A stretch of DNA of 47,697 nucleotides, from contig CAYXLS010000001.1 in assembly GCA_964464785.1 (NCBI GenBank), positions 1-47,697 on the forward strand, given 5' to 3'. The stretch is from an uncultured Gammaproteobacteria bacterium (GTDB lineage: Bacteria; Patescibacteriota; Microgenomatia; UBA12405). A program made the position numbers and the translations under genes. This document shows, in pieces, positions 2,912 to 46,279 of this stretch (positions are counted from its first letter, which is position 1; each line of letters begins with the position of its first letter). The notes under the pieces were generated by a model. It was not told the DNA's origin. It did no database searches and saw only the letters and a program-made list of their open reading frames with translations.

Positions 2912-4474
2912 TTATTTTATAATTTTATATTTATAAGCAGCTTTTAGGCGATGGGTTTTTAATTCGCCAAATTTAACGGTAGAAAAAAGCATGGTTGAAT
3001 AATTTTTAAAAATTTTGATTAAATACTTAAAGTCTTCAAAAGTTTTAATTTTTTTGAAAATTGTTGATGGTTTAATAAAAGGTCGGAAAAAGCGAGAAAT
3101 CATTAATTTGTTTTGAGCAATATTTCTTAGTTTTCGAATGTCGTTTACAGAAAGGTATTTGTTACCTAGCCCAACATATCCAGAAAAAGTTTTGCCAATA
3201 TTTTTACTATTAATATCAGTTTTTTTGAGCAAACCTTCTTTTTCTAATATTTTGGTAACATCAGTCTCTGGAAAAGGCATTAGTAATATAAAAACGACAA
3301 AATCTGAAAGTGATTTGATGGCATAATTAAAAGTAGTTTCAATGGCTTTTTTGGTTTCATAAGGGAATCCAATAATGTATGTTGAAAATGTCCAAAATCC
3401 GAGACTGTTGGCCAATTTGATAATTCTTTTAGCTTTTTTTAAGTTTAAATTTTTTCTAATAAATTTTTGAGTTGTGGGATGGCCTGATTCAATTCCAAAA
3501 GTTAGACGATAGCAACCACTTTTTTTCATTTTTAATAATAAATGTTTGTCTAGAGTCCATATCGCAATACCGTTTGGGCAAGTCCATTTTATGTCTAATT
3601 TTTTGGCAATTAGACCGTCACATATTTTCTCAAGCCGCTCTCGATTAACTGAAATATTGTCATCTAAAAAGTGAATTTCTCTAAAACCGTATCTTTTAAC
3701 TAAATGTTCAATTTCATTTACTATTCGTTCGGCACTAAAAGGTCGCCAACAACGTCCCCAAATAGTGGGAACTGCACAATAAATGCAATTATTGGGGCAA
3801 CCACGGCTAGTAACTACAGAGGTATAAGGGGTTCTCATAACATAAGTACCTTTGTTTTCTTTGCCTCCAGAAAGATAAATATCCATAGGTAAAAGATGGC
3901 GGGCTGGTAAGGGTAAAGAGTCTAACTTGGTAATAGGAAGTCTGGTTGGATTTAAAACAATTTGGCCTTGGTTATCTTTAACTGCTGTGCCTTTGATGTT
4001 TAGTAGATCGTGTTTGTTTACAAAATTTTTGACTATTTCTAAAATAGTATTTTCGCCTTCTCCAATAACTACAATGTCAACATTTTTATCAGTTAGTACA
4101 TCTTTGTAAAGGATAGATGCATGTGCGCCTCCAAAAACTACGAGAGTGTTGGAGTTGTGACTTTTGACAATTTTGGCAATATCGTGTGAATCAGAAGAAT
4201 AGGCAGTAAACATTGTACTAATTCCAACAATTTCGGGCTGATAATAGTTTAATTTTTCAACAATAGTTTCTTTTGATAGTCCAATGCGAGTGTGATTTTT
4301 GGTTTTTTTTATGGTGTTTATTCCTTCTGCAAGAGCGTCGATGATTGAAACATTGTATCCATTAGACTCCAAAATTGCCCCTATGTTGGCTAAACCAAGA
4401 GGAATATAAATACCCGGAGTGGTAGTATCGTTATTTCTAATTGTCATTGGCGGATAAAAAAGAAGAATTTTCAT
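2912..4474 (-). CDS. Class B (cobalamin-binding-domain) radical SAM enzyme
   Basis: 520 aa. N-terminus MKILLFYPP...IPLGLANIGAILESNGYNVSIIDA is typical of the B12-binding Rossmann domain in these enzymes. Canonical CX3CX2C in VTSRGCPNNCIYCAV. Confidence 0.8.
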   Translation of the reverse strand: MKILLFYPPMTIRNNDTTTPGIYIPLGLANIGAILESNGYNVSIIDALAEGINTIKKTKNHTRIGLSKETIVEKLNYYQPEIVGISTMFTAYSSDSHDIAKIVKSHNSNTLVVFGGAHASILYKDVLTDKNVDIVVIGEGENTILEIVKNFVNKHDLLNIKGTAVKDNQGQIVLNPTRLPITKLDSLPLPARHLLPMDIYLSGGKENKGTYVMRTPYTSVVTSRGCPNNCIYCAVPTIWGRCWRPFSAERIVNEIEHLVKRYGFREIHFLDDNISVNRERLEKICDGLIAKKLDIKWTCPNGIAIWTLDKHLLLKMKKSGCYRLTFGIESGHPTTQKFIRKNLNLKKAKRIIKLANSLGFWTFSTYIIGFPYETKKAIETTFNYAIKSLSDFVVFILLMPFPETDVTKILEKEGLLKKTDINSKNIGKTFSGYVGLGNKYLSVNDIRKLRNIAQNKLMISRFFRPFIKPSTIFKKIKTFEDFKYLIKIFKNYSTMLFSTVKFGELKTHRLKAAYKYKIIK

Positions 4475-4479
4475 TTTAG

Positions 4480-5934
4480 TTATTTTTTAGATTGAGAAAT
4501 TAAAAACATAAATATTTTGTTAATTAATTTGTTGTCGTACACTAATTTTCTAGTTAAATGAGCAAAAAGTGGAATACGGGTTAGTAAATAAAATATAGTT
4601 CCAAGTATTTTACCAAAACGAAATTGATAAAGTTTTCGTTCGTAAAGAGCAAAACCTTTTTTCATAACTCTAATTCTTTGATCTTTGGTAAACTCTTTGG
4701 TTTCAAATATAGGATTGATGTCACGATAGGAGATGTGTTTTAAATACTGGTTTTTGGGTATTAAAAAATGAGCATTTTTGATAGCCCAATCGTAAACTTC
4801 AGTACCTGGATATGGTACTAAATTATAAAAATTAACGTAATCACAATTTAAACTTTTTGCAAATGATAAAGTTTCCAGAGCTTCTGAATAGGTTTCTTCT
4901 TGATGTCCGATTATGAAATTAACGGCATGTTTAATCTTCGTTTGACTGGTTAATTTGACAGCTTGTCTAACTTGTTCAAGGGTAATGTTTTTTTTGATAC
5001 GGTTAAGTGTTTTTTGACTACCTGATTCACATCCATAAGCAATAAAGTAACAACCAGCTTTTTTGAGTTTTTTAAGTAATTTTAAGTTTATATTATTTAC
5101 TCTGATACCATTGTAAAGCTGAAATTTAATCTTTAATTTATTTTTGACTATAAGATCACAGATGTTTTGAGCTCGATTGATATCGAGAGTAAAACAATCA
5201 TCATTGATATCAAATCTCGAATATCCTTTTTTGTACCAATAAATTATTTCGTCAACAACATTTCTGGGACTTCGGGGTCGAAAACATTGCCCCATAGATA
5301 ATTTAACTGAACAATAATTACAACCGTAGGGGCAACCTCGAGAAGTGATTATAGGAATTATTTTTTCGTTATAGCAAGGATATTTTTTTATTTTAAAACT
5401 TTCATAATCTGGAAAAGAAAGATCGTCTAATTTATAAATAAGAGGTGCAGGGTTGTTAATGATTATTTTATTTTTATTTTTCCAAATTAAATTGGGAACA
5501 TGTGAATAATCTGGAATTTTTTGAGAAAAAACTTGTAAAAAATCTATAAAAGAATTTTCTGATTCACTATACATGGCAAAGTTAATTTTAGTTTCTTTTA
5601 AAATTGTTTCTTTTGTGGCGGAAACATGAGGACCTCCGAGAATAATGGGTATATTGGTGATAGTTTTAATCGTTTTAATGGTGGAATAGAGATAGTCATA
5701 GGCATAACTAAAACCAGTTACTCCGATAATGTTAGGAGAAAAATTCTTTATGGTAAGTTTTATTTTTTTTATATAATTTTTTTCAACACCACAATCTATT
5801 ATTTGAAATTGAAAATTATTTTTTTTAAGAACAGATACTAGATAGGCAATACCAACATGAGGGTGAATAGGTATTCCTTTTTCAGTACCAAACATCGATT
5901 TGATTTCGGGAATGATAAAAAGTACTTTCATCAA
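4480..5934 (-). CDS. Class B (cobalamin-binding-domain) radical SAM enzyme
   Basis: 484 aa. N-terminus VLFIIPE...HVGIAYLVSVLKKNNFQFQIIDC, then CX3CX2C in ITSRGCPYGCNYCSV. The first codon in the track is TTG at 5934; an ATG follows at 5931. Confidence 0.8.
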   Translation of the reverse strand: MMKVLFIIPEIKSMFGTEKGIPIHPHVGIAYLVSVLKKNNFQFQIIDCGVEKNYIKKIKLTIKNFSPNIIGVTGFSYAYDYLYSTIKTIKTITNIPIILGGPHVSATKETILKETKINFAMYSESENSFIDFLQVFSQKIPDYSHVPNLIWKNKNKIIINNPAPLIYKLDDLSFPDYESFKIKKYPCYNEKIIPIITSRGCPYGCNYCSVKLSMGQCFRPRSPRNVVDEIIYWYKKGYSRFDINDDCFTLDINRAQNICDLIVKNKLKIKFQLYNGIRVNNINLKLLKKLKKAGCYFIAYGCESGSQKTLNRIKKNITLEQVRQAVKLTSQTKIKHAVNFIIGHQEETYSEALETLSFAKSLNCDYVNFYNLVPYPGTEVYDWAIKNAHFLIPKNQYLKHISYRDINPIFETKEFTKDQRIRVMKKGFALYERKLYQFRFGKILGTIFYLLTRIPLFAHLTRKLVYDNKLINKIFMFLISQSKK

Positions 5935-5939
5935 ATAGA

Positions 5940-7019
5940 TTAATTTATTATTTCCATAGAAAAGTCTTTATTGAAAAATTTAGCGATTTTTTTGAAAATT
6001 CTAAAATAATTTTTTCCTAAAATATTACCAATAGTAGTGGCGATAACTCCTCTTAAACCAGAAGGCATTCCTAAAATTGTTTTTTCCCACAAACTATCAC
6101 AGTTTTGACAGTAAGAATTATATTTTAGATATGTTTTATCAATCATAGATTTTCTAAAATTAATCATTTTTCGATTATTCCAAATAGATTTTATAGTTTC
6201 TGTATTGACATTACCTAAAACATTTTGACCAAAAAAGTCTGAGCAACAAGCAACAACTCGACCATCCCAAAGTATTCCGAGTGACCCCCAAAGGTATGAG
6301 CATGGAGAAAAAATATTACTTAATTTTTTTGGGAAAAATTTTTTGGTGTTGTTAAATACACCTCCCCAGGTACTAGGTTTTCTAATTTGAATACTGTCAA
6401 GTGGTAAATTGGCAAAATTCATTTTAAATTTATCAATATTTTTTTGATAATCTAGGATTCCCTTTTGATTTAGTAAAAGAATTTGAAGTTCTGTTGTAAT
6501 ATTAGATTTAAGTTCTTTTTTAATCTTTAAAAATTCAACGACGTTTTTTAGTGTTGGTTCAAATTTACCGTTAATTCTAATTTTTTCATAAATTTTTTTG
6601 GTACAACCATCGAAAGAGAAATTGATCCAATCTAAACCAGATTTGATAATTTGTCGAGATAATTTTGGAGTTAAGATAGTTGCATTAGTTGATAAATAAG
6701 TTTTGATGCCATTATTTTTTGCATATTTAACCATTTGTGGGAATTTTGGATGTAAAAGAGACTCTCCAGAAATACAAAGAACTATATAAGATATATAGTT
6801 CTTACTTTGATCAATTATTTTTTTATACAGATTTAAGTCCATAAAACCGAGTTTATCTTGGCTTATAATAGAGTTAGGACACATAAGACATTTTAAATTG
6901 CATTTGTTTGTCGGTTCAATCCACAAAGCTAGTGGTTGGTAACAAAGTTTAATGATTTTGAGTTTATAACTAATAATTGAGCTTACGATTGCAATACTAT
7001 TTTTTATTTTTTTTATCAT
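5940..7019 (-). CDS. Radical SAM enzyme with a C-terminal SPASM/twitch-like Cys-rich extension
   Basis: 359 aa. CX3CX2C in EPTNKCNLKCLMCPN. C-terminal CSYLWGSLGILWDGRVVACC (CX12GX4C) followed by YCQNCD (CX2C). Confidence 0.75.
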   Translation of the reverse strand: MIKKIKNSIAIVSSIISYKLKIIKLCYQPLALWIEPTNKCNLKCLMCPNSIISQDKLGFMDLNLYKKIIDQSKNYISYIVLCISGESLLHPKFPQMVKYAKNNGIKTYLSTNATILTPKLSRQIIKSGLDWINFSFDGCTKKIYEKIRINGKFEPTLKNVVEFLKIKKELKSNITTELQILLLNQKGILDYQKNIDKFKMNFANLPLDSIQIRKPSTWGGVFNNTKKFFPKKLSNIFSPCSYLWGSLGILWDGRVVACCSDFFGQNVLGNVNTETIKSIWNNRKMINFRKSMIDKTYLKYNSYCQNCDSLWEKTILGMPSGLRGVIATTIGNILGKNYFRIFKKIAKFFNKDFSMEIIN

Positions 7020-7031
7020 AGTAGTTGAAAT

Positions 7032-8090
7032 TTAATTTTCAGGAGTACTGATATTACGTTGTGATTTAAAGAAATTAGCAATATATGAGAGAAGACTAGT
7101 TTTGACCATAAGGTGATTGGTTTTGAAAAGTGTAGTGTCTGTAATTTTTCTATTTTTTTGAATAATATATCTCTTTTTTAATATTTTAGATAGATTAGTT
7201 ATGTTCCAAATAATACCATGAAAAATATTTATAGAGGACTTAAACTTTCCAGTTATAAGAAGGAATAAACCTAGAGAAAACCACAAAACAAGATGTATCG
7301 GTAAAATTTTAATTAAATTTAAAATTGATAAGTTTTTGATTAATGTCTGGATATAATTCTTTGTACCGTGAAATCTGATTAAGTAATTATTAAAATCTTT
7401 ACTTACGATATTTTTAGTAGAAGAAAATTGATGATAAACGATGGATTTTGGACAAAAAAGATTGTGATAACCTGATAACCAAGTTCTCCAACCTAAATCA
7501 GTCTCTTCCATAAAGATAAAATAGTCTGGATCAAATTTACCCGCTTTTATAAAAGCATTTCTACTAATAAACATACCAGCAGATTTTGCTGCTAAAATAG
7601 GATAAATTTTGTTATATTGACCTTTATCAATGTTTCCATATGAGCTAATAGGTTTTAAAAATCCAAGATTTCCAAGAAATTCACCCACGTAATCAATACG
7701 TTTTTTTTGATTTAGAAGTAATAATTTGCATTGTATTACACCTATTTTTTCATTTATGTTAAAAAGGTTAACAGCTTTTAAAATCCAATTTTTATCAACT
7801 TCAGTATCATTGTCTAAAAATGCAATATATTTACCTTTACTGATTTTAAATCCTTCGTTACGTGCAAAAGCTGGACCATAATTTTTTGAAAGTTTTACAA
7901 ATTTAATCTTTGTTAAATATTTAATAAATTTTTTTTTAATAAAACCAATACTATTATCAGAAGAAGCATTGTCAGATACTATTATTTCGTAATTATGGTA
8001 ATTATTTTTTAGAATTGAAGAAATACAATTTTTTAAAAAGATTTTACCATTATAATTAATAATAATTACAGAAACTAATGGATATTTCAT
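7032..8090 (-). CDS. Family 2 glycosyltransferase (COG1216 / rhamnosyltransferase-like), with a C-terminal hydrophobic segment
   Basis: 352 aa. VSVIIINYNG, SDNASSDNS and the FLDNDTE DxD-type motif. C-terminal helix ILPIHLVLWFSLGLFLLITG. Confidence 0.8.
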   Translation of the reverse strand: MKYPLVSVIIINYNGKIFLKNCISSILKNNYHNYEIIVSDNASSDNSIGFIKKKFIKYLTKIKFVKLSKNYGPAFARNEGFKISKGKYIAFLDNDTEVDKNWILKAVNLFNINEKIGVIQCKLLLLNQKKRIDYVGEFLGNLGFLKPISSYGNIDKGQYNKIYPILAAKSAGMFISRNAFIKAGKFDPDYFIFMEETDLGWRTWLSGYHNLFCPKSIVYHQFSSTKNIVSKDFNNYLIRFHGTKNYIQTLIKNLSILNLIKILPIHLVLWFSLGLFLLITGKFKSSINIFHGIIWNITNLSKILKKRYIIQKNRKITDTTLFKTNHLMVKTSLLSYIANFFKSQRNISTPEN

Positions 8091-8746
8091 TTTATAATTT
8101 TAACAGCAAAAAGCCCAAAAGAATATTTTGGAGAATAATAATTTAAAATTTGAAATAAAGCATTGATCGCATAAAAAAAAGGACGTGGATAAAATTTAAT
8201 ATTTTGATAAAATTTTCCATTTATAAGGCTATCGACATTGTTTGATGGTTTATAAAAAATTTTTAAACCACTAACACCATAAACTTTAAAACCATTTTTT
8301 TTAAGTTCAGTAATTGACCATCCAGATAAATGTTTTTGATATTTATTGTTGTCAACTAAATCCATAGGAAAATAATTATTAGGAGTAGATAGAATAACTT
8401 TTTTGCTTGCCCATTTTTGAGCTAATTTTAATATTTTTAAACCATTTTTTTTAGAAAGATGTTCAAGGACTTCAATTAGAATTACGGCATCAAAACTTTT
8501 GGGTTTAAAATTTAAATTTAAAATATTTTTTTGAAGATATTTAGTATGAATGTTTTGTTTTTGAGAAATATCTAAATATGGTTTAAAAAGTTCAACCCCA
8601 ACGCTGTATTCAATATTTTTAATATTTTTCAATGGAGATGAAGGGCCACAACCAAGATCAAGTACAGTTTTACAATTAACTAATTCTTTTTGGAGACAAT
8701 AATCAATTTTATGAACGATTTTATAGATGATTTTTTTTATACTCAT
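8087..8746 (-). CDS. Class I SAM-dependent methyltransferase
   Basis: 219 aa. Motif I VLDLGCGPSS and motif II-like AVILIEVLEHL. 4-nt ATGA overlaps with both neighbours. Confidence 0.75.
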   Translation of the reverse strand: MSIKKIIYKIVHKIDYCLQKELVNCKTVLDLGCGPSSPLKNIKNIEYSVGVELFKPYLDISQKQNIHTKYLQKNILNLNFKPKSFDAVILIEVLEHLSKKNGLKILKLAQKWASKKVILSTPNNYFPMDLVDNNKYQKHLSGWSITELKKNGFKVYGVSGLKIFYKPSNNVDSLINGKFYQNIKFYPRPFFYAINALFQILNYYSPKYSFGLFAVKIIK

Positions 8747-10134: not shown

Positions 10135-11273
10135 TAATTATCAAACTTAATATCTAAAGCACAACAACGAAAACATGCAGGGATTATTTTGGATTTTAAA
10201 AATATTTTTCTAAAGTTATTTACTTTATTACTATGCCAAATACCCATTAATGATTGTTGGTGAATATTACCAGCAATAAAACCATGACAAATTTCAACAT
10301 CACCATTACCACGAAGAAAAATTTGTCTAAACGGAGATACACATTTAGATTTTTTACTTGGAAAAACTCCAGTATAATATTTTTCTAAATCTACTTTATC
10401 GTTGATTGAAATTATTAGTTTTTTATTTTTTATTGAAGTGATTTTTTTAATTTTATCTTTAATGGTATTAATTTCTTGTTGATTAAAATAATTTTTTTGA
10501 AAACCTAAATCTTGACCCCAAATATCATTTCCAGTTTTGTATTTTTTATAAAATTTATTTTGGTTTGATTTAATATCATTGTAGTAATAAAAAAAATGAC
10601 TAATAGACCATTGATCAACTTTTATCTTCTTTGCCAAAAAGTATATTTTATTGAAATTTAAATAATTTGATTTGTTGATAACGGTAGCGATTCTGATATT
10701 AGGAAAATGATTTGTTCCTTTTAATTTAATTACTTTTTTTATTCCTTTTATTATTTTATTAAATGAACCCTTGACGTAACCTCGAAGATATTGCGTTTGT
10801 TCATCTGGACCATCAAGCGAAACAGCTAAGAAATCAAGGCCAGAGTTAACAATATTTGAGGCATATTTTTCTAAGAGTAAACCATTTGTAACTAAACCAG
10901 TTGGAATTTTTTTACTATGAAGATATTTAATAATTTTAAAAATTTCTGGATGTAATAATGGTTCACCTCCTGAAAGTTGAAAAGAAATACCTTTTTTATA
11001 GCCCTCTTGTGCAATTTTTTTTATATCTGAAAAAGTCAAAATATTGGTGTATTTTTGTCGAGAATTACCGACATGACACATAGGACATTTAAAATTACAT
11101 TGTTCGGTAATAAAACAATTTATTAATCTAGGAAAATTTGTTGCTTTTTTATTAAAAAAAAATGAATCTGTAAGAGTATTTATAGCAACCTTGGGGTATT
11201 TGATTGCAAGTTCTATTTTTTTAAATAAAGATATATTAATCATGGAAGTATGATTTAGTAATAATATTGGCAT
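10134..11273 (-). CDS. Radical SAM enzyme with a C-terminal SPASM/twitch-like Cys-rich extension
   Basis: 379 aa. CX3CX2C in ITEQCNFKCPMCHV. C-terminal CVSPFRQIFLRGNGDVEIC (CX12GX4C) and CFRCC. The internal ATG at 11243 (MINISLF) would cut the 38-nt overlap with the upstream gene to 8 nt, so the start is uncertain. Confidence 0.75.
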   Translation of the reverse strand: MPILLLNHTSMINISLFKKIELAIKYPKVAINTLTDSFFFNKKATNFPRLINCFITEQCNFKCPMCHVGNSRQKYTNILTFSDIKKIAQEGYKKGISFQLSGGEPLLHPEIFKIIKYLHSKKIPTGLVTNGLLLEKYASNIVNSGLDFLAVSLDGPDEQTQYLRGYVKGSFNKIIKGIKKVIKLKGTNHFPNIRIATVINKSNYLNFNKIYFLAKKIKVDQWSISHFFYYYNDIKSNQNKFYKKYKTGNDIWGQDLGFQKNYFNQQEINTIKDKIKKITSIKNKKLIISINDKVDLEKYYTGVFPSKKSKCVSPFRQIFLRGNGDVEICHGFIAGNIHQQSLMGIWHSNKVNNFRKIFLKSKIIPACFRCCALDIKFDN

Positions 11274-12372
11274 TTTGAGTACCGAATTTTTTTAGAGCAA
11301 AAGAACGACAATTTAATTTCATATCAGTAATGATATTAGGTTTTTGTATAAGTATGTTTATTATTTTTAATAGATTTACTTTGGTTGGATTTATTGAAAT
11401 TCCAACTTGTGGAGAATACATTTTGGAAACAGAACCTTTGTTAGTTGTAATTACAGGTGTTCCACACATTAATGATTCCATTACTATCATTGGTTGAGCT
11501 TCAGGAGCTAATGAAGGTAAAATTGTAAAATCATTGTATTGGTAATATTTTATAATTTCCAATGGTTGTTTTTTCCCTAATATTTTAAAGTTTTTTTGAT
11601 TAGTACTTGACTTTTTTAATTTTTTATAATCCGGGCCGTCACCGATGATAGTAATAACTATCTTTGGATTTTTTTTAGCTAAAAAAAGTAAATTGAATAC
11701 TCCTTTCATACTAATAATTCGACCGACAAATAACAAATTAAGAAGAAATTTAGAATTATTTTTTTTTAATATTGGTTTATAAACTTGAGGATCAAGCCAG
11801 TGATGATATTGACATATTTTTTCTTTATTTATACCTATTTTTTGTAATTGAATGCTTGATTTTTGGCTAACAGTAAGTATTTTATGAAATCCTTGGAAAG
11901 TCCATTTAAAGATTTTTGTAGATATTTTTGATATATCAAGATTTGGATATAAATAATGTGTACTGACAATTAATCTGATATTTTTAATATATAAACAAGA
12001 GATACGAGTGATAAAAGCTGCGGCAAATCCATGAGCATGAATGACATCAACATTTTTTTTATTTTTTAATAAATAAATAAAGCTATTTAAAAGAAGCCCA
12101 GGGATTATATAAATAAATTGTAATAAAGGATAAGAGGTAGTAATGTCGAATATTTTTTTACCAAACCACCAATATCGATGAATTGTTAAATTTTTAGATT
12201 TTTCAACTTTTAAATATTTTTTAACTTTGGTTGTTAGTGGTTTATATGTAAGAACAGTAGTATTATAATTAAGTTTGGTTAAGTGTTCAGTTAAAAGATT
12301 TAAGTGACTTTCAACTCCGCCAATATTAGGTCTGAAAAATGGACAAATAATTAATATGTTTTTTGTTTTCAT
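11236..12372 (-). CDS. GT-B fold glycosyltransferase, family 4 (GT1-superfamily) type
   Basis: 378 aa. N-terminus ILIICPFFRPNIGGVESH. C-terminal EX7E motif in APEAQPMIVMESLMCGTPVITT. Confidence 0.75.
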   Translation of the reverse strand: MKTKNILIICPFFRPNIGGVESHLNLLTEHLTKLNYNTTVLTYKPLTTKVKKYLKVEKSKNLTIHRYWWFGKKIFDITTSYPLLQFIYIIPGLLLNSFIYLLKNKKNVDVIHAHGFAAAFITRISCLYIKNIRLIVSTHYLYPNLDISKISTKIFKWTFQGFHKILTVSQKSSIQLQKIGINKEKICQYHHWLDPQVYKPILKKNNSKFLLNLLFVGRIISMKGVFNLLFLAKKNPKIVITIIGDGPDYKKLKKSSTNQKNFKILGKKQPLEIIKYYQYNDFTILPSLAPEAQPMIVMESLMCGTPVITTNKGSVSKMYSPQVGISINPTKVNLLKIINILIQKPNIITDMKLNCRSFALKKFGTQNANIITKSYFHD

Positions 12373-13392
12373 TTAGAAATTCCACCAAAAAGTTCTAAGT
12401 TTACAATTTTGGCATAATTTTAAATTATTAGTGTCAATATTTAAATGTTTTTTTCTAATATATTCAAAATTTTTATTTTTCCATATTGATGCAATAGAAT
12501 CTTTTTTGGCATTACCTAGTATAATTTCGCCTTCAATATCTTGACAACAAAGAGAAATGGTTCCATCCCAATTAATTAACATTTCAGTAAAAGGAAGTCG
12601 ACAGGGAGATCGACTAAAAGAAACATAATTGTTTATGGATAAGTCAAGATTTAATTTTTTTTTGTTTGACCAATCATGGATTTGTGAGATACAAACTTTA
12701 TCAACTAGTTTTTTCCATTTATTGAGAAATTTTTTAGTTTCTTTTTTATTAAGATTAAATTCTAAAAAGTCTATAATAATTTTCGGTTTATTTGTTTTTA
12801 GCTTTTTTTTAAGACTTATTAAATATTTTATATTTTTTTGAACTAAGTCATAATTTAATCCAATTCTTATTTTTTGATATGTTTTTTTGGTAAAAGCGTC
12901 AACACTGATAAAAATTTCGTCTAAACCGGAATTAATAATATCTTTAGCAATTTTTGGAGTTAATAGTGTACCGTTGGTATTGGTAGATACTCGTAAAATA
13001 TTTTTTGATTTAGCATATTTGACTTTCCAGGAAAAATTTTTATCTGTTAATGGTTCGCCAAAATTATGTAAATTTATATATTTTATATTTAATTTTTCTG
13101 TCTGATTTATAATATTTTTATATAATTTTTTTGACATTGTTCCTTTTTTCCTTTTCATCGTTGGATAAGGACACATAAAACATCGACCATTACAAATATT
13201 AGTGTTTTCGATTCTAAGGCTAAAAGGTTTATTTCTATATTTATTTATTACTAGGGCTATTTTCTTTTTTAAAAAAAATTGGTAGATGTTATTTTGTAAA
13301 AATATCTTTTTTGATAAAAACCAGTTAAACATTTTTTTTATAGGATAATTGTACAGAATAGTGTCTAGTATTATTTTGTTTATTGTCGCCAT
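12373..13392 (-). CDS. Radical SAM enzyme with a C-terminal SPASM/twitch-like Cys-rich extension
   Basis: 339 aa. CX3CX2C in ENTNICNGRCFMCPY. C-terminal CRLPFTEMLINWDGTISLCC (CX12GX4C) and LCQNCK (CX2C). Confidence 0.75.
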   Translation of the reverse strand: MATINKIILDTILYNYPIKKMFNWFLSKKIFLQNNIYQFFLKKKIALVINKYRNKPFSLRIENTNICNGRCFMCPYPTMKRKKGTMSKKLYKNIINQTEKLNIKYINLHNFGEPLTDKNFSWKVKYAKSKNILRVSTNTNGTLLTPKIAKDIINSGLDEIFISVDAFTKKTYQKIRIGLNYDLVQKNIKYLISLKKKLKTNKPKIIIDFLEFNLNKKETKKFLNKWKKLVDKVCISQIHDWSNKKKLNLDLSINNYVSFSRSPCRLPFTEMLINWDGTISLCCQDIEGEIILGNAKKDSIASIWKNKNFEYIRKKHLNIDTNNLKLCQNCKLRTFWWNF

Positions 13393-14396
13393 TGTTGTCG
13401 ATTTAATTGTTTTAATATTCCTAACTTATTTTTTATAGTGTTGATAGTATAAAGATAGAGAGTAATAAAACAAGCTACTGGATGTAAAAACCAAGCGACA
13501 TCAGGTTTGTTGTAAAAACCCCTAATACTATCGAATAAGGGGGGAAATAAAAAAATTGTGTACAAAGAAAATTTTATAACACCTGATTTATTGGTATTGT
13601 CCCAATTGTATTGCCTTAAATTTTGATAATAAAAATAATCAGTGATACGACGATTTTGTTTACGAATAAATTTTTTGAATGAACTTTCACAAAAAGTATG
13701 GATAATCCCCTGTTTTACTTTGGCAAAATAAATTGATTTTTTTGATTTGTTTAAATATTGACTGATAATGTCTATGTCAAAAAGATAATCAGATTTTAAA
13801 TTTTTTTTGAGAAAGTCAGCTCTAAAAATTGTGCCATTGGCACCAATAGTGGGAATTGGTAATTTTGGTTTCAGTTCTGCTTTAATATAATTTGGATAGT
13901 CTATTTGATTTATTTTTAAACCAGTCCATTTGAAATTTATAAAATTTTTCCGATCATAAACGCCAGTTACAAAAGCATAAGGATCATTGATGCCAAAAAG
14001 AGCTGAGTATCTTTCGATGTAACCGGCATTTTTTCGATAAGTAAAAAATAATGGTTCAGATCCGATTAAAGAGGTGTCTTTGTCTAGTATATCTAAATTG
14101 GTTTTCAACCAAGATTTTGTTGGCAATATATTGTCTGAATCAATTAAGGCAATGTATTTGCCTTTAGCGATTTTGACTCCAACTGCTTTGCCAGCTTCAG
14201 CGGTTTTGAGTAGGTTTGAGACTATTTGGGCATGATATTTTTGGGCTATTTGGAGGGTTTTGTCGGTGGAACCACCGTCAGATATTATTATTTCATAATC
14301 TTTAGAAATGATAGATTGTTTTTTGATGGATTTTAGACAAATTTCTAAAACCTTTTCAGCATTGAGAGTAGGGATAACAAATGAAACTTTTATCAT
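13380..14396 (-). CDS. Family 2 glycosyltransferase
   Basis: 338 aa. VSFVIPTLNAEKV, ISDGGSTDKT and LIDSDN (DxD). Hydrophobic C-terminal region. Confidence 0.8.
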   Translation of the reverse strand: MIKVSFVIPTLNAEKVLEICLKSIKKQSIISKDYEIIISDGGSTDKTLQIAQKYHAQIVSNLLKTAEAGKAVGVKIAKGKYIALIDSDNILPTKSWLKTNLDILDKDTSLIGSEPLFFTYRKNAGYIERYSALFGINDPYAFVTGVYDRKNFINFKWTGLKINQIDYPNYIKAELKPKLPIPTIGANGTIFRADFLKKNLKSDYLFDIDIISQYLNKSKKSIYFAKVKQGIIHTFCESSFKKFIRKQNRRITDYFYYQNLRQYNWDNTNKSGVIKFSLYTIFLFPPLFDSIRGFYNKPDVAWFLHPVACFITLYLYTINTIKNKLGILKQLNRQQWRQ

Positions 14397-15886
14397 GAGA
14401 AATCTTTTAATTTTTTAATATATTTAAAAGCATAATTTGTCAGATGCTTTATATCATCAAAGTTTCTAATTGAGATAATTTTTTTTATAATAAATTTTGG
14501 AGTAATTACACCTTTAAATAAATTTTGAATTAACTCTATTTGAGTTTGTGGTGGGATAGGTGATTTAATTATGGGTTGACGCATATCGTAATCATTCCAA
14601 TTAGTAGTCAAAAGTAAATTGTTTTTTTGACAATAGTTAAAAAGTGGAGTTCCGGGATAAGGAATAAGTAAAGTTGCTTGAAGACTGTCAGCTAAGTTGT
14701 TTTGAAAGATAAAACGAGCTAGATTTAAGGTTTTTTGAGATTCGCGAAGTGTTTCATTTGGATAACCAATCATAGTGGTGACATGTGGTTCAAGTTTAGC
14801 TTTTTTGGTCATTTTTAAAGTTTTTAGGGCAGCTGAAGTCTTTTCGTTTTTGTTGACAAATAAGAGGGTTTTTTGATTAGCAGATTCCAGGCCATATAGA
14901 ATAAATCTAAAGCCAGATTTTTTCATCAAAAAATATTCTTTTTGACTTAAGGCTCCAAAGCGCATATTACAGCCTAAAGCTACTTTTTTGTTTAGACCTC
15001 GGGTTATAAGTTGATTACATAAATCATTTAACCATTTACCAATAGGAAGTGTCCCAGAATCATCAAAAATTTCTTTAACACCAAAGTTATAAACTAAATT
15101 TTCAATTTCTTTAAGAGTGTGTTTAACTGAAAATGAGTGAAAATTTTTGCCTGGAAACAAGGTAACCCAGCTCCAAAAAGTGCATTTTCCCCACCAACAA
15201 TCTCGACCAGACATGATGTAACTACCGGGTTTGTATTTATAGTTAGTATTGTTATAAGCATAAAGTTGCCATTGAGTTAATTTTCTGTCAATTATAGGTA
15301 ATTTAGCTAAGTTAATTGATTTTTGGAGTTTATAAATTTTATCTTTAGGAGCATTGCCTTTATTAATAAGATCAATTAATTCTTCAAGTAAAAAATCATA
15401 ATGACCACCAATTAATACATAGTCTACTTTACAATTATCAATTGATTCTTGAGGAAGTGCCGTGACATGGTCACCCATAAGGACTACAAGTGGTTTCCAG
15501 CGACATTCTTTTTTAATTTGATTGATTATTTGCCAATGCTTTTTGACGACTGGAGTTTTAGTTTCAATAGCAATTAAATCTGGTTTATTTTTTTTAAGCT
15601 CTTTAAACCAAACTTTATAACTAAGATTTTTAGCAATGGCGTCATCCCAAAATATTTTTAAACCTTGTTTACTAAGTAAAGAAGCAGCATAAGCTGGAAC
15701 TATTGGGTAAATGACGTTGCCGGTATTAGTCCATTGGAATTGACGATTTTGAGATAAAAAGGCAGTTCCCTTTGGAGATTCTAGTGGTGGATAAGAAAAA
15801 GAAATAGATTTAACCACCAATGTATTTGCCAGTTTTTTGGTCAAACGAGTGGGGTTTAAATTTGACGTCTTTTTTGGATAAACCAT
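14393..15886 (-). CDS. Cobalamin-binding-domain radical-SAM-like protein with an incomplete Fe-S cysteine motif
   Basis: 497 aa. The layout matches the other class B enzymes (N-terminal Rossmann-like region, central barrel region). The cluster motif reads SGRDCWWGKCTFWSW, that is C-X4-C-X2-W, with TGG where a third Cys codon is expected. The 77-nt overlap with the upstream gene would shrink to 8-11 nt if GTG (15817) or TTG (15820) is the real start. Confidence 0.6.
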   Translation of the reverse strand: MVYPKKTSNLNPTRLTKKLANTLVVKSISFSYPPLESPKGTAFLSQNRQFQWTNTGNVIYPIVPAYAASLLSKQGLKIFWDDAIAKNLSYKVWFKELKKNKPDLIAIETKTPVVKKHWQIINQIKKECRWKPLVVLMGDHVTALPQESIDNCKVDYVLIGGHYDFLLEELIDLINKGNAPKDKIYKLQKSINLAKLPIIDRKLTQWQLYAYNNTNYKYKPGSYIMSGRDCWWGKCTFWSWVTLFPGKNFHSFSVKHTLKEIENLVYNFGVKEIFDDSGTLPIGKWLNDLCNQLITRGLNKKVALGCNMRFGALSQKEYFLMKKSGFRFILYGLESANQKTLLFVNKNEKTSAALKTLKMTKKAKLEPHVTTMIGYPNETLRESQKTLNLARFIFQNNLADSLQATLLIPYPGTPLFNYCQKNNLLLTTNWNDYDMRQPIIKSPIPPQTQIELIQNLFKGVITPKFIIKKIISIRNFDDIKHLTNYAFKYIKKLKDFS

Positions 15887-16787
15887 ACAGGAATAGTATA
15901 CCGTAATAAATATGAGTGATGGGAATTGTTAGAGTGGCTAAAAGAGAGGGCAAAAGCTTATTTTTCTTAATTAGAAATATTACTAAAGTTATAAGTAATA
16001 TTGATAAATATATATATAATGGAATATACAATAAAATATTGTTAAATATTAAAATATTTAAAATTAATAATAATAAGTAAAAGACAAAAAAAGAAGGTAA
16101 AAGATATCCGATTTTAAAAGAAGTTTCAGGGAATTTTTTAGCAAAAAATCCACGTTGAATGGCGTATCGAGTAATTTGTTGAAGGTGAGGCATAATAACT
16201 GAGCGACGATGATGGAAAACTACTAAAGATGGGTGATAATAAATTTTTAAATTAAATTTTTTAGTTAGATTTAGACAAAGAACAGTATCTTCTCCTGGCC
16301 AATATTGATTATCAAAAGAACCAGCTTTAAAAAAGTCTGTTTTTTTGACAATTAAATTAACACTGGGATAATCTTCAACAAATCTTGATGGTTTAATACT
16401 ATTTCGATAAACTCCAGCTCCACCACTACCAAGAAAACTAGACCAAACTAGACCAGAAGATTGTTGATAAAGATTGTCTTTAGGTGGAGTTAGACATGGA
16501 CCACAAAAAGAAGCGTAATTGGGGTGTTTAGTTACTAGTTTTTGGGCTTGTTTAAAATAATTTTTTGAAGGAAAAGAATCATCATCAAAAAAAACTAAGT
16601 AATCACCCTTAGCTTTTTTAGCACCTAGATTTCTTTTTTCTGATGGATTAGCAGAACCCGAAACCTTATCGGTAATAACTAAGATTTCAAAATTTTTAAT
16701 TGTTTGTTTTTTTAAGGCTATAATAGTTTCTTGGAGATAACTATTTTCCTTACGTATAGGTATAATTATAGAAAAGATAATTTTCAT
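15810..16787 (-). CDS. Family 2 glycosyltransferase with a C-terminal multi-helix membrane anchor
   Basis: 325 aa. FSIIIPIRKEN, the FFDDDS DxD motif and WPGEDTVLC. The last roughly 110 aa contain several hydrophobic helices (LLPSFFVFYLLLLILNILIF..., LSILLITLVIFLI...). Confidence 0.75.
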   Translation of the reverse strand: MKIIFSIIIPIRKENSYLQETIIALKKQTIKNFEILVITDKVSGSANPSEKRNLGAKKAKGDYLVFFDDDSFPSKNYFKQAQKLVTKHPNYASFCGPCLTPPKDNLYQQSSGLVWSSFLGSGGAGVYRNSIKPSRFVEDYPSVNLIVKKTDFFKAGSFDNQYWPGEDTVLCLNLTKKFNLKIYYHPSLVVFHHRRSVIMPHLQQITRYAIQRGFFAKKFPETSFKIGYLLPSFFVFYLLLLILNILIFNNILLYIPLYIYLSILLITLVIFLIKKNKLLPSLLATLTIPITHIYYGILFLYGLSKKDVKFKPHSFDQKTGKYIGG

Positions 16788-16794
16788 ATAGTGT

Positions 16795-16815
16795 TTATAT
16801 TATGTCATAATATAA
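16795..16815. promoter_or_regulatory. Perfect 21-bp palindrome centred in the 35-bp divergent gap. Candidate back-to-back extended -10 promoters and/or an operator
   Basis: TTATATTATG-T-CATAATATAA (10+1+10) is centred at 16805, which is also the midpoint of the 16788-16822 gap. It reads TGnCATAAT on both strands. Each copy lies 11 nt upstream of its start codon (ATG at 16823 on plus, ATG at 16787 on minus). Confidence 0.4.
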
Positions 16816-16822
16816 GTATTTA

Positions 16823-25764: not shown

Positions 25765-25765
25765 T

Positions 25766-29043: not shown

Positions 29044-29044
29044 T

Positions 29045-34413: not shown

Positions 34414-34417
34414 GTTG

Positions 34418-38737: not shown

Positions 38738-38751
38738 TGATTAATGATACC

Positions 38752-40451: not shown

Positions 40452-40454
40452 TAT

Positions 40455-41390: not shown

Positions 41391-41406
41391 AGATTAAATA
41401 AGTTTA

Positions 41407-46258: not shown

Positions 46259-46279
46259 TTTTATATTTTAACAAGCTAT

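Follow-up and report, generated by a model that had tools for sequence, protein, structure and literature searches.

What do seven radical SAM (rSAM) enzymes do when they are encoded in close succession among glycosyltransferases (GTs)? The window, that is, the whole 47,697-nt stretch of DNA analyzed, contains at positions 2912-16787 a block of 12 tightly packed minus-strand genes, whose content, coordinates, and order as given by the first-pass annotation were reproduced with the ORF list and Pfam (Table 1). The block comprises seven rSAM family genes (three with a cobalamin-type domain, three SPASM/twitch, and one, rSAM*, from a CX4CX2C family), three membrane-anchored family 2 GTs, one GT4, and one class I methyltransferase (MT), transcribed in the order GT2a, rSAM*, GT2b, SPASM1, GT4, SPASM2, B12-2, MT, GT2c, SPASM3, B12-3, and B12-4. 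Since the spacing between them is only -77 to +12 nt, the genes are stop/start coupled, and the intergenic space is too small for a small precursor ORF. Seven rSAM-family genes in 12 is far above expectation for a superfamily roughly estimated at about 1% of genes, and the pairwise identity of only 25-37% among the paralogues excludes recent tandem duplication. The GT/rSAM order is by itself statistically unremarkable, a GT being first and no GTs adjacent in 56 of the 495 arrangements possible with this composition (p = 0.11), and what supports it is its recurrence elsewhere, in the genomes of relatives. Both the GC content (0.28-0.32, falling to 0.23-0.27) and the identity to relatives (from about 80% at the block ends to 36-58%) drop toward the block center, as in serotype-type glycan loci.

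Table 1 Features of the window, with Pfam matches (scores in bits) and transmembrane (TM) segments
Feature	Positions	Strand	Assignment	Pfam	Remarks
CofD-fold protein	108..1085	plus		CofD 132	
7-TM + TPR protein	1135..2901	plus	TMTC-like membrane protein	TPR only	convergent with B12-4
B12-4	2912..4474	minus	class B radical SAM	B12-binding 75.8, Radical_SAM 83.9	CxxxCxxC at C226; best conserved block gene
B12-3	4480..5934	minus	class B radical SAM	B12-binding 48, Radical_SAM 63.9	CxxxCxxC at C201; conserved core gene
SPASM3	5940..7019	minus	second BtrN-like twitch radical SAM	yes	accessory, variable slot 3
GT2c	7032..8090	minus	family 2 GT	PF00535 97.6	one C-terminal TM, 254-281
MT	8087..8746	minus	class I SAM-dependent methyltransferase	Methyltransf_11/25/23	accessory
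B12-2	8743..10134	minus	cobalamin-domain (class B) radical SAM	B12-binding 71.1, Radical_SAM 68.3	CxxxCxxC at C184; accessory, variable slot 2
SPASM2	10134..11273	minus	radical SAM, short SPASM/twitch C-terminus	yes	
GT4	11236..12372	minus	GT4	PF00534, PF13439	
SPASM1	12373..13392	minus	BtrN-like twitch radical SAM	Radical_SAM, SPASM	CxxxCxxC at C67; accessory, variable slot 1
GT2b	13380..14396	minus	family 2 GT	PF00535 73.1	one C-terminal TM, 300-318
rSAM*	14393..15844	minus	class-B-like radical SAM, CX4CX2C family	Radical_SAM 36.6; B12-binding 18.6, below cut-off	public gene call, 483 aa; ORF reaches 15886
GT2a	15810..16787	minus	family 2 GT	PF00535 54.6	first block gene; two C-terminal TMs, 223-261 and 282-300
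Methyltransferase	16823..17626	plus	class I	Methyltransf_23/11/25	
GT2, GT4, GT2	17621..20326	minus	soluble; end of upstream glycan block	yes	
Seven tandem GT-C paralogues	20316..32364	minus	PMT_2/ArnT-like	PMT_2/PMT	528-564 aa, 7-9 TM, pairwise identity 27-38%
Fragment in GT-C array	25147-25764			 	205 aa, 3 TM
Remaining glycan locus	32354..47629	minus	from Pfam and TM counts		YfhO, 34418-36682; Wzx-type flippase, 43068-44528

The canonical CxxxCxxC motif is present in six of the seven rSAMs, five of which have the carbohydrate enzymes AprD4, BtrN, and BlsE as nearest solved relatives and not, as the first-pass annotation had considered, housekeeping rSAMs. AprD4 is the best solved relative of both B12-2 (E = 1.1e-18) and B12-4 (E = 1.6e-23); the exception is B12-3, for which the peptide methylase QCMT/MgmA (9ccb, 5.9e-21) comes first and AprD4 (1.5e-13) second. 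The AprD4 structure (PDB entry 6fd2) is paromamine-bound. GenK, GenD1, and MoeK5 are also named among the class B sugar enzymes, and AprD4, the top match of B12-4 and B12-2, does not bind cobalamin (PMC12931638); for the class B-type rSAMs of the block, cobalamin binding cannot be read from the sequence and is putative. The predicted AF2 models confirm the class B fold for rSAM* (pLDDT 78.9; Foldseek matches to TsrM, MgmA, AprD4 with TM 0.69/0.73, and OxsB) and for B12-4 (pLDDT 89.8; MgmA, AprD4, OxsB, TsrM, TokK, and CysS). The deviant motif marked earlier in rSAM* holds for the copy in this assembly, C-x4-C-x2-W with Trp in place of the third Cys (codon TGG at 15173-15175), but not for the family: CWWGxCxFC, with all three Cys, is retained in 119 of the 120 closest homologues, the Trp occurring in the window copy only, so that degeneracy of the family was rejected. 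HpnJ is the top NCBIfam match of rSAM* and B12-2 and the second of B12-4, with near full-length alignments that score far below the cut-off (98-171 bits in the block vs 578). None of the seven rSAMs reaches a curated NCBIfam cut-off, and their reaction types therefore rest on distant similarity; the best matches include non-sugar enzymes (Sden_1168 P-methylase, BchE, a tungsten-cofactor maturase, and the RiPP enzyme ApyD).

SPASM1 and SPASM3, 37% identical to each other, both have BtrN as the best solved relative (E = 8.6e-16 and 6e-13, respectively). In SPASM1, which has one auxiliary cluster, C264, C283, C327, and C330 align opposite BtrN C169, C188, C232, and C235, which we take to be the auxiliary-cluster ligands, and the spacing of C240/C259/C304/C307 in SPASM3 is also that of BtrN. 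SPASM2 (C-terminal cysteines C311, C329, C367, and C370) resembles BlsE cytosylglucuronate decarboxylase (2.9e-13), MoaA, and viperin, and hence probably acts on a nucleotide-linked sugar. With only 5-6 C-terminal Cys, the twitch enzymes have room for one auxiliary cluster, as in BtrN and in contrast to the seven-Cys SPASM motif of typical peptide maturases.

The block sits within a roughly 45-kb glycan locus containing about 10 further GT2/GT4 genes (about 14 in total), the seven tandem PMT_2-type GT-C paralogues and several other membrane proteins resembling GT-C, as well as YfhO and Wzx, all of which support the glycan or glycoconjugate setting proposed at first sight. The remaining part of the locus comprises an 8-TM protein without family, GT2, YfhO, GT2, GT4, three GT2, a 9-TM protein without family, the flippase, a PTPS_related-like 9-TM protein, and one more PMT_2-like protein. 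On the other side, the CofD-fold protein best matches the CofD_related/YvcK-type (UDP-GlcNAc-binding) subfamily at 156 bits, below the cut-off of 196, and its gene is a conserved cluster neighbor in Patescibacteria, adjoining the 7-TM + TPR gene. The N-terminal membrane part of the latter's product, which has seven TM segments, matches no Pfam family; several homologues carry the JGI name "protein O-mannosyl-transferase," and in five related loci (L045, L051, L056, L057, and L061) the homologue adjoins a B12-4-like gene on the same strand. The plus-strand methyltransferase gene begins 35 nt from the start codon of GT2a and shares 6 nt with the 3' end of the minus-strand GT2 gene upstream; for the MT of the block, the NCBIfam search gave no family-level match. 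The window contains no precursor peptide and no lipid-pathway or cofactor-pathway genes, as had been claimed, nor an initiating phosphoglycosyltransferase, a nucleotidyltransferase, or a cobalamin uptake gene.

The GT-then-rSAM order recurs in relatives, as the core GT2a-rSAM*-GT2b-[slot]-GT4-SPASM2-[slot]-GT2c-[slot]-B12-3-B12-4 is found in L001, L003, L009, L010, L012, L042, L089, and L090, whereas strict alternation is limited to Shapirobacteria/Woesebacteria-like genomes. The variable slots are filled by rSAMs, NAD-dependent SDR epimerase/dehydratases, or methyltransferases; in slot 1, L001 has two SDR epimerase/dehydratases and L003 a methyltransferase. Orthologues of SPASM1 occur in L089/L090 and those of B12-2 only in L010 (48%) and L090 (59%), and no SPASM3 orthologue is present in the nearest related loci. 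Among the core genes, B12-3 is 78-81% identical to its orthologues, SPASM2, kept after GT4, has 53-56% orthologues in L001, L003, L009, L010, and L090, GT4 keeps its position with a divergent sequence (36-50%), and the GT2c orthologue lies upstream of B12-3/B12-4. The only module conserved more widely is GT2a - CX4CX2C rSAM - GT2b, found in Elusimicrobia, one Parvarchaeota archaeon, and Deltaproteobacteria; GT2a orthologues adjoin the CX4CX2C rSAM there as in CPR loci, and GT2b orthologues come after rSAM* in every related locus. The B12-4 family, with 243 relatives among GTDB species representatives, spans bacteria and archaea (Patescibacteria, Omnitrophota, Methanoperedens, Bathyarchaeota, DPANN, Nitrospina, and Planctomycetes in the survey). 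As raw counts with no matched random-locus control, and annotated by phmmer searches from seed proteins in place of curated HMMs (some B12-4 loci being Pfam-annotated as examples), its loci of at least 15 kb contain a GT in 41 of 54, a GT or nucleotide-sugar gene in 47 of 54, and at least three rSAMs in 28 of 54; on the same footing, an independent survey of the twitch family found a GT or nucleotide-sugar gene in 33 of 41 metagenome loci of at least 8 kb, the rSAM frequently adjoining an SDR gene directly. Homologues of two rSAM families are thus encoded beside GT or nucleotide-sugar genes in most of the loci surveyed, and not consistently beside the peptide precursor, lipid, or cofactor genes that the first-pass annotation had named as the contrary case. 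At distant loci, where alternation is absent, the rSAMs stand beside DegT, SDR, AsnB-like, and hexapeptide-transferase genes, whose products use nucleotide sugars.

From the gene content, motifs, folds, synteny, and neighborhood statistics observed directly, we infer the substrates, reaction types, and stage of action of each enzyme as follows. The block is probably a sub-operon for radical tailoring within a large and hypervariable locus for a cell-surface glycan or glycoconjugate of an anaerobic Shapirobacteria-like CPR bacterium, its enzymes acting at mixed stages. A sugar chain would be built on a membrane carrier by the four cytoplasm-facing GTs, including the three membrane-anchored GT2, and its sugars would be remodeled by the rSAM enzymes. 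B12-2, B12-3, B12-4, and rSAM* would most likely C-methylate sugar carbons or catalyze an AprD4-/HpnJ-/OxsB-like rearrangement or deoxygenation, and SPASM1 and SPASM3 may oxidize or epimerize a secondary alcohol. In the GT2a→rSAM* and GT2c→B12-3+B12-4 couples, which parallel HpnI→HpnJ, the rSAM may work on the lipid-anchored glycoside made by the preceding GT2. The twitch enzymes would act at the nucleotide-sugar stage, where we place them because their slots are filled by NAD-dependent epimerase/dehydratases in sister genomes. Wzx would then flip the finished unit, which GT-C, YfhO, and TMTC-like enzymes from neighboring genes would hand on. Counting against this reading are the missing phosphoglycosyltransferase, nucleotidyltransferase, and cobalamin uptake genes, the Trp in the third Cys position of the rSAM* copy, and the match of B12-3 to QCMT.

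A strictly co-linear assembly line, with each rSAM acting on the growing lipid-linked glycan right after the GT encoded upstream and gene order equal to reaction order, would explain the conserved couples (GT2a-rSAM* across phyla; GT4-SPASM2 and GT2c-B12-3-B12-4 in CPR relatives) and the absence of nucleotide-sugar modifying genes from the Pfam annotation of the window. Among class B enzymes already characterized on sugars, GenK, GenD1, MoeK5, and AprD4 reportedly also use glycosides rather than nucleotide sugars. Further precedents are HpnI→HpnK→HpnJ and calditol synthase, in which a GT is followed by an rSAM on lipid-linked sugars (PMC13459092) and which the earlier statement that known carbohydrate rSAMs act singly had overlooked. 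However, SDR epimerase/dehydratases working on nucleotide sugars take over the slots in relatives, L001 has adjacent GT2 genes and three B12 rSAMs in succession, the distant loci lack alternation, and the order pattern could arise by chance, making strict co-linearity unlikely. Of the proposal that each sugar is radically modified once it has been added, the glycan setting stands, but the order of addition and modification is unproven, and the nucleotide-sugar stage, to which the SDR swaps and the distant-locus neighbors point, is equally likely. The HpnI→HpnJ-type precedent also fits tailoring of a glycolipid head group, in which the GT2s would glycosylate a membrane lipid instead of a polyprenyl carrier, with class B rSAMs turning its sugar into a carbocycle or methylated head group on the model of HpnJ (hopanoid cyclitol ether) and calditol synthase (PMC13459092). 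The HpnJ matches and the membrane anchoring of the neighboring GT2 products agree with this, but the matches are far below the cut-off, lipid biosynthesis genes are absent, and four block GTs with Wzx, YfhO, and many GT-C fit export or transfer of an oligo- or polysaccharide better than a monosaccharide head group. CPR bacteria are also not known to have hopanoid or GDGT pathways, and this reading is improbable.

Still less probable is that the rSAMs modify a RiPP or surface protein encoded elsewhere that the GTs glycosylate (a glycosylated RiPP, or a modified S-layer protein or pilin), even though RiPP maturases are very often SPASM/twitch or class B rSAMs, the best solved relative of B12-3 is a protein methylase, ApyD and RiPP C-methylase models match the three canonical class B proteins (E 1e-16 to 1e-44), and two GT2s outside the block in the window weakly match the SunS S-glycosyltransferase model. 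No precursor ORF fits into gaps of at most 12 nt, the Pfam annotation of the window includes no PqqD/RRE domain, peptidase, or ABC exporter, the twitch enzymes have a single BtrN-like auxiliary cluster, and GT and nucleotide-sugar genes dominate the neighborhoods of both surveyed families. That AprD4, BtrN, BlsE, and the GenK-type enzymes all come from antibiotic pathways (PMC12931638) might suggest that the product is not a surface glycan but a small molecule for secretion, either an oligosaccharide or a natural product of the aminoglycoside type. This appears very improbable, as aminocyclitol synthase, aminotransferase, resistance, and regulatory genes are not present, GT-C, Wzx, and YfhO envelope machinery surrounds the block, in many Patescibacteria the block likewise adjoins the conserved CofD/YvcK-like and TMTC-like genes, and the genome is probably about 1 Mb or less, judging from a relative's 735-kb contig.

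Returning to the mixed-stage surface-glycan reading, we found no published description of such a radical-SAM glycan-tailoring cluster in the literature. The locus points to sugars being remodeled by radical chemistry, not yet described for polysaccharides, and radical-SAM glycan tailoring is a real, uncharacterized, and widespread theme.

The 12 consecutive minus-strand ORFs spanning 2912-16787 were recovered by the ORF list and Pfam assignments in the content and order first described, with seven radical SAM (rSAM) genes lying between glycosyltransferase (GT) genes and separations of only -77 to +12 nt between neighbors. Six of the seven rSAMs contain CxxxCxxC, the canonical motif whose three Cys hold the SAM-cleaving [4Fe-4S] cluster within a partial TIM barrel, with 63-84 bits for Pfam Radical_SAM (PF04055). 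Each of the three family 2 glycosyltransferases (GT2a, GT2b, and GT2c) ends in one or two hydrophobic segments. Pairwise identity among the rSAM paralogues is just 25-37%, indicating separate old lineages and ruling out recent tandem duplication as their origin. Assignment of the three GT2s to the ArnC/GtrB/DPM1-type polyprenyl-phosphate GTs was considered and set aside because the NCBIfam scores are non-discriminating (25-34 bits for ArnC, with similar values for MftF, EpsD, and TuaG); the NCBIfam search gave a family-level assignment for none of the block rSAMs and GTs.

Features of the rSAM block and the surrounding glycan locus (block genes and the GTs directly upstream assigned with Pfam; order, position in transcription order within the block)
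Feature	Coordinates	Strand	Order	Remarks
CofD-fold protein	108-1085	+		Best NCBIfam match YvcK subfamily, under cut-off
7-TM + TPR protein	1135-2901	+		Membrane part without Pfam family; homologues repeatedly named 'protein O-mannosyl-transferase' by JGI
Cobalamin-domain rSAM (B12-4)	2912-4474	-	12
Cobalamin-domain rSAM (B12-3)	4480-5934	-	11
rSAM + SPASM (SPASM3)	5940-7019	-	10
GT2 (GT2c)	7032-8090	-	9
Class I methyltransferase	8087-8746	-	8
Cobalamin-domain rSAM (B12-2)	8743-10134	-	7
rSAM + SPASM (SPASM2)	10134-11273	-	6
GT4	11236-12372	-	5
rSAM + SPASM (SPASM1)	12373-13392	-	4
GT2 (GT2b)	13380-14396	-	3
B12-like rSAM (rSAM*)	14393-15886	-	2	497-aa ORF
GT2 (GT2a)	15810-16787	-	1
Class I methyltransferase	16823-17626	+		Sole plus-strand gene inside the locus
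GT2, GT4, GT2	17621-20326	-		Upstream of the block
Seven tandem PMT_2/ArnT-like GT-C paralogues	20316-32364	-		528-564 aa, 7-9 TM, pairwise identity 27-38%
GT-C gene within the array	20316-21935	-		Just sub-threshold (22.4 vs 22.7 bits)
GT-C gene within the array	25766-27352	-		Just sub-threshold (22.8 vs 26.1 bits)
205-aa 3-TM ORF inside the GT-C array	25147-25764	-		Weak resemblance to PMT_2 C-terminal part
Next in order: 8-TM protein without family, GT2, YfhO, GT2, GT4, three GT2, 9-TM protein without family		-
Wzx-type flippase	43068-44528	-		PF13440, 153.6 bits
PTPS_related-like membrane protein		-		Beyond the flippase
PMT_2-like protein	46280-47629	-		Next after the PTPS_related-like protein; sub-threshold, 20.6 bits

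The window (47.7 kb, 27% GC) is occupied nearly throughout by one minus-strand glycan locus, which holds about 14 GT2/GT4 genes and extends past the window end at 47.6 kb. The tandem GT-C paralogues are multi-pass proteins with a PMT_2/PMT domain, as in GT-C transferases that draw on polyprenyl-phosphate sugars, the cut-off for this domain being passed by five of the seven (30-42 bits); the short ORF inside the array may be a GT-C remnant, and a seven-gene GT-C array is in itself unusual in a very small genome. Pfam returned nothing significant for the membrane regions 1135-2400, 32354-33652, 41407-43116, and 25147-25764, and the three multi-TM proteins without a family could be a polymerase or ligase. 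Within the window we found no initiating phosphoglycosyltransferase (PF00953 WecA/MraY or PF02397 WbaP type), no nucleotidyltransferase or nucleotide-sugar enzyme, and no recognizable Wzy, and the Rfam and tRNA scans gave no match. A gap of 35 nt (16788-16822) separates the start of the plus-strand methyltransferase from that of the divergent GT2a, and its last 6 nt (17621-17626) overlap the upstream GT2 of the minus strand at the 3' end of the latter, so that the rSAM block is probably a transcription unit separate from the upstream GT/GT-C block. At the opposite end, the CofD-fold gene best matches the YvcK-type subfamily, although below the cut-off, and a cofactor (F420) role for it was rejected on this basis. 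The CofD/YvcK-like gene and the TPR membrane protein form a conserved pair, which in five other loci (L045, L051, L056, L057, and L061) adjoins a B12-4-like rSAM on the same strand; its recurrence beside a B12-4-like gene in several Patescibacteria suggests a functional link.

Three of the rSAMs (B12-4, B12-3, and B12-2) combine an N-terminal, Rossmann-like B12-binding domain (PF02310; 75.8, 48.0, and 71.1 bits, respectively; cut-off 32.1) with an rSAM core and are thus predicted members of class B; cobalamin binding itself has no diagnostic sequence motif. AprD4, which has the class B fold and yet binds no cobalamin (PMC12931638), is the best solved-structure match by sequence of both B12-4 (1.6e-23) and B12-2 (1.1e-18), followed by QCMT/MgmA and by TokK or TsrM, while B12-3 matches QCMT best (5.9e-21; 9ccb, identified as QCMT/MgmA in PMC12931638), followed by AprD4, CysS, TokK, and OxsB. 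The AF2 model of B12-4 (pLDDT 89.8, pTM 0.90) gave Foldseek matches to MgmA, AprD4, OxsB, TsrM, TokK, and CysS, and that of the B12-like gene rSAM* (pLDDT 78.9) displays a two-domain class B architecture with matches to TsrM, MgmA, AprD4 (TM 0.69/0.73), and OxsB. Both models superpose on MgmA, OxsB, TsrM, TokK, and AprD4, confirming at the level of predicted structure that the two proteins share the class B two-domain fold; methylase, dehydratase, and rearrangement chemistries are, however, not separable by Foldseek for these models, so that the structural comparison proposed in the first-pass annotation settled the fold but not the reaction. The proposed HMM searches matched the rSAM, B12, and SPASM Pfam domains, but none of the seven rSAMs reached a curated NCBIfam whole-protein cut-off. 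The best scores against cut-offs were 215/575 bits for the Sden_1168 P-methylase, 171/578 for HpnJ, 169/481 for BchE, 122/380 for the tungsten-cofactor maturase W_rSAM_matur, 98/500 for AprD4, 84/180 for viperin, and 70/400 for BlsE; membership in the HpnJ, BchE, Sden_1168/PhpK, AprD4, BlsE, tungsten-cofactor maturase, MoaA, and viperin families is therefore not assigned at these cut-offs. No cobalamin uptake, transport, or salvage gene was found in the 47.7-kb window.

The rSAM* gene, starred in the first-pass annotation, has a deviating cluster motif, which reads C230-WWGK-C235-TF-W238 in the window, with 36.6 bits for Pfam Radical_SAM and 18.6 bits for PF02310 (under the 32.1 cut-off). The Trp occupies the place of the third Cys in the window copy, but the family is not degenerate: a database search retrieved thousands of homologues, including a public protein (P0121; 483 aa, on a 90,915-bp NCBI contig) 100% identical to rSAM*, and 119 of the 120 best contain C-W-W/H-G-x-C-x-F-C (CX4CX2C), Trp occurring at the third position only in the window sequence. 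The retention of three Cys rules out a pseudo-enzyme family and marks rSAM* as belonging to a family of rSAMs with a non-canonical motif. The W238 codon (TGG at 15173-15175, minus strand) is a single base from a Cys codon, and the Trp could stem from an error in sequencing, be a variant within the population, or mark a recently inactivated copy. One homologue, a 700-aa JGI protein 80% identical to rSAM* (P0133), also contains N-terminal class I methyltransferase domains and is either a natural methyltransferase-rSAM fusion or a merged gene call.

The best solved-structure match by sequence is BtrN for SPASM1 (8.6e-16) and SPASM3 (6e-13), followed in both by BlsE, and is BlsE for SPASM2 (2.9e-13), followed by MoaA and viperins. 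C264/C283/C327/C330 of SPASM1 align opposite four Cys of BtrN, which we take to be the auxiliary-cluster ligands C169/C188/C232/C235; the corresponding residues are C240/C259/C304/C307 in SPASM3, spaced as in SPASM1, and C311/C329/C367/C370 in SPASM2. All three proteins (38-58 bits for the Pfam SPASM model) have five or six Cys C-terminal to the core, and none has the full seven-Cys SPASM motif for two auxiliary clusters of the anSME/PqqE/peptide-maturase type, which often comes with an RRE/PqqD domain and a neighboring precursor peptide. The short Cys pattern thus marks SPASM1-3 as twitch-type enzymes with four predicted C-terminal ligands to one auxiliary [4Fe-4S] cluster, like small-molecule enzymes rather than the seven-Cys peptide maturases. 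The block rSAMs have superfamily domains in common with the RiPP maturases (such as QCMT/MgmA, ApyD, and PqqE-type), and QCMT is the top solved match of B12-3. In contrast to those systems, the block is devoid of precursor, RRE, protease, and exporter, its twitch enzymes have a single predicted auxiliary cluster, and its relatives reside in glycan-gene neighborhoods. No PqqD/RRE Pfam domain was detected in the block and the intergenic regions leave no room for a precursor; the window as a whole likewise has no precursor-sized gap, no RRE domain, and no gene of a lipid or cofactor pathway, in agreement with the original observation that peptide precursor, lipid-synthesis, and cofactor-pathway genes are lacking from the block.

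The layout was compared with homologous loci in other genomes and contigs (denoted by L numbers), the closest named relatives being Candidatus Shapirobacteria and Woesebacteria. A common core, GT2a-rSAM*-GT2b-[slot 1]-GT4-SPASM2-[slot 2]-GT2c-[slot 3]-B12-3-B12-4-[slot 4], is found in L001/L042, L003/L012, L009, and L010, where it likewise adjoins the TPR membrane protein and CofD. Slot 1 is filled by SPASM1 in the window, by two SDR epimerase/dehydratases in L001, and by a methyltransferase in L003; slot 2 by B12-2 and the methyltransferase, by an SDR and a GT2, and by a methyltransferase, respectively; slot 3 holds SPASM3 in the window and is empty elsewhere; and slot 4 is empty in the window, whereas L001 has a third B12-rSAM and L003 a protein without a family there. 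The strongest single argument for sugar tailoring by these rSAMs is that the slot of a BtrN-like, dehydrogenase-type rSAM can be taken instead by NAD-dependent sugar epimerase/dehydratases. The version present in the window recurs on two metagenome contigs, as rSAM*-GT2b-SPASM1-GT4 at 73-87% identity (L089) and as GT2b-SPASM1-GT4-SPASM2-B12-2-GT2c-B12-3 at 47-61% (L090). Identity to the relatives is about 80% at the block ends (2912-5934 and 13380-16787) and falls to 36-58% in the center (5940-13392), with the GC content decreasing from 0.28-0.32 to 0.23-0.27; such a divergent, low-GC center between conserved ends is a signature of a hypervariable (serotype-type) glycan cassette. The proposed conservation of the alternation accordingly holds for the core in the CPR relatives, but no strict GT/rSAM alternation was seen beyond them. 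Several TPA MAG records (L008 and L009, also L013, L025, L028, L029, L031, and others) are titled 'uncultured Gammaproteobacteria/Pseudomonadales bacterium' while containing genes 84-87% identical to those of the CPR locus in the window and the same CofD-TPR-B12 synteny; these titles look taxonomically wrong.

An alignment scan with the B12-4 family, using one genome per GTDB species, yielded 243 relatives, and the best 80 were annotated by phmmer with the window proteins and SDR, DegT, AsnB-like, and hexapeptide sequences as seeds. Among these 80, 54 loci are at least 15 kb long, and of them 41 contain a GT and 47 a GT or nucleotide-sugar gene, an enrichment judged, as in the second survey below, against general expectation rather than against matched random loci. 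Two or more rSAMs occur in 39 of the 54 loci, three or more in 28, four or more in 20, and five or more in 9, the maximum being eight to nine matches (nine comprising eight B12-type and one SPASM-type) in a 21-kb Omnitrophota locus (L021). Among the hosts are Patescibacteria, Omnitrophota, Methanoperedens, Bathyarchaeota, DPANN archaea, Nitrospina, Planctomycetes, and Elusimicrobia, and loci annotated with Pfam give the same picture (Methanoperedens, L005; an actinobacterial MAG, L006; Omnitrophota, L007). GT2a-rSAM*-GT2b, often with GT4 next, is found together with a relative of B12-4 in one MAG each of Elusimicrobia and Deltaproteobacteria, in a Parvarchaeota archaeon, and in Nitrospina. In an independent survey of metagenome contigs with a SPASM1/SPASM3 alignment (41 loci, each 8 kb or longer), 25 loci contain a GT and 33 a GT or nucleotide-sugar gene, and an SDR gene very often directly adjoins the rSAM. 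Five loci (L021, JBAZLB010000001.1; L046; L047; L053; and L062) contain five to nine rSAMs within 21 kb beside AsnB-like, SDR, and hexapeptide-transferase genes, with no GT match by the seed proteins; they may represent a related nucleotide-sugar pathway richer still in rSAMs.

The block is worth comparing with the known systems in which rSAMs act on sugars. Sequence comparison places AprD4 (a 1,2-diol dehydratase), BtrN (a twitch dehydrogenase), and BlsE (a decarboxylase) nearest among solved structures, but the NCBIfam AprD4 and BlsE models give the block only 36-98 bits against cut-offs of 400-500. GenK, GenD1, MoeK5, and Fom3 of antibiotic sugar pathways are class B methylases, whose two-domain fold is predicted for B12-4 and rSAM*, although class B enzymes are only about 14-20% identical to these two in the Foldseek alignments. 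Moreover, the aminoglycoside and nucleoside-antibiotic pathways use one or two rSAMs to make small secreted antibiotics, whereas the block places seven in a CPR cell-envelope glycan locus. Tailoring of a lipid-linked sugar before GT-C transfer is known, for instance, from ArnC-ArnD-ArnT and from the DPR-to-DPA step that supplies the GT-C enzymes of the Emb/Aft type. Like the Wzx-dependent O-antigen/capsule-type loci, the window contains many GT2/GT4 genes, a Wzx-like flippase, and GT-C and YfhO transferases, along with conserved flanks, a divergent low-GC center, and cassette-like swapping of tailoring genes. Those loci tailor with SDRs, aminotransferases, and acyltransferases, whereas the tailoring set of the window is mostly rSAM; its seven tandem GT-C paralogues are also unusual, and it contains no initiating phosphoglycosyltransferase and no recognizable Wzy. 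In the hopanoid HpnI/HpnK/HpnJ pathway, which converts BHT-glucosamine to a cyclitol ether (PMC13459092), and in the calditol synthase (Cds) system, the hexose that a GT2 has added to a membrane-bound acceptor is then remodeled by a co-encoded rSAM, as would be the case in the block. Among the NCBIfam models, HpnJ, itself a class B member (PMC12931638), ranks first or second for three of the four class B proteins, but at 98-171 bits, far under its cut-off. Each of these systems has one rSAM and one GT against seven and four in the block, where hopanoid and GDGT genes are absent and the context is Wzx- and GT-C-based glycan export.

From the gene content, motifs, folds, synteny, and neighborhoods, we propose that the block is responsible for making and editing surface-glycan sugars, and carbohydrate is the probable substrate class of its rSAMs. 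The stage at which they act may differ between the two types. Action on nucleotide sugars is favored by the swapping of slots with SDRs, by the DegT, SDR, AsnB-like, and hexapeptide genes that neighbor rSAMs in distant loci, and by the resemblance of SPASM2 to the nucleotide-handling BlsE, MoaA, and viperin. Action on a lipid-linked glycoside is favored by the GT2a-rSAM* adjacency conserved across domains, by the lack of any nucleotide-sugar enzyme in the window, and by the glycoside substrates of AprD4 and of the known class B sugar enzymes; HpnI-HpnK-HpnJ and calditol synthase provide precedents (PMC13459092). In the mixed model that we favor, the class B enzymes would take as substrate the membrane-anchored sugar made by the preceding GT2, and the twitch enzymes would work at the nucleotide-sugar level, with export by Wzx and transfer by the GT-C, YfhO, and TMTC-like proteins.

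The gene order by itself is no evidence, since 'GT first, GTs never adjacent' arises by chance in 56 of 495 arrangements, and a strict assembly line, in which each rSAM acts directly after the GT encoded upstream, appears unlikely. A more far-reaching version, which we regard as unlikely, is that each membrane-anchored GT2 and the following rSAM(s) would produce a distinct radically edited polyprenyl-phosphate sugar (e.g., C-methylated, deoxygenated, epimerized, or ring-contracted), to be used by the GT-C, YfhO, and TMTC-like proteins as a dedicated donor for decorating surface proteins or the cell wall. Such an oxygen- and NAD-independent 'radical glycan-editing' system would be new, would be common to CPR bacteria, DPANN archaea, Omnitrophota, Methanoperedens, and further lineages, and would give rise to surface diversity of a serotype-like kind.

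To our knowledge, rSAM chemistry acting on sugars has so far been described in a few antibiotic pathways and for the head groups of two lipids. The literature searched contained no case of an rSAM in a cell-surface polysaccharide or glycoprotein glycan, nor a published description of such rSAM/GT glycan loci, and a 2026 review of class B enzymes covers only antibiotic, lipid, cofactor, and peptide substrates, the words polysaccharide and glycan being absent (PMC12931638). The superfamily class of every enzyme and the envelope-glycan nature of the locus are recognizable from known systems; what is new is the combination, in which the tailoring of a surface glycan would fall mainly to many divergent rSAMs, and this combination is conserved, in modular form, in many uncultivated lineages of anaerobes. 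The block supplies compact, co-linear GT-rSAM pairs amenable to in vitro work. If the proposal is true, it would provide a functional context for a large group of class B and twitch rSAMs that lack annotation, and sugars new to glycans (C-methyl, deoxy, and carbocyclic) would be predicted on the cell surfaces of CPR and DPANN, whose lifestyle depends on host attachment; a genome-reduced symbiont would then need scavenged cobalamin for its surface.
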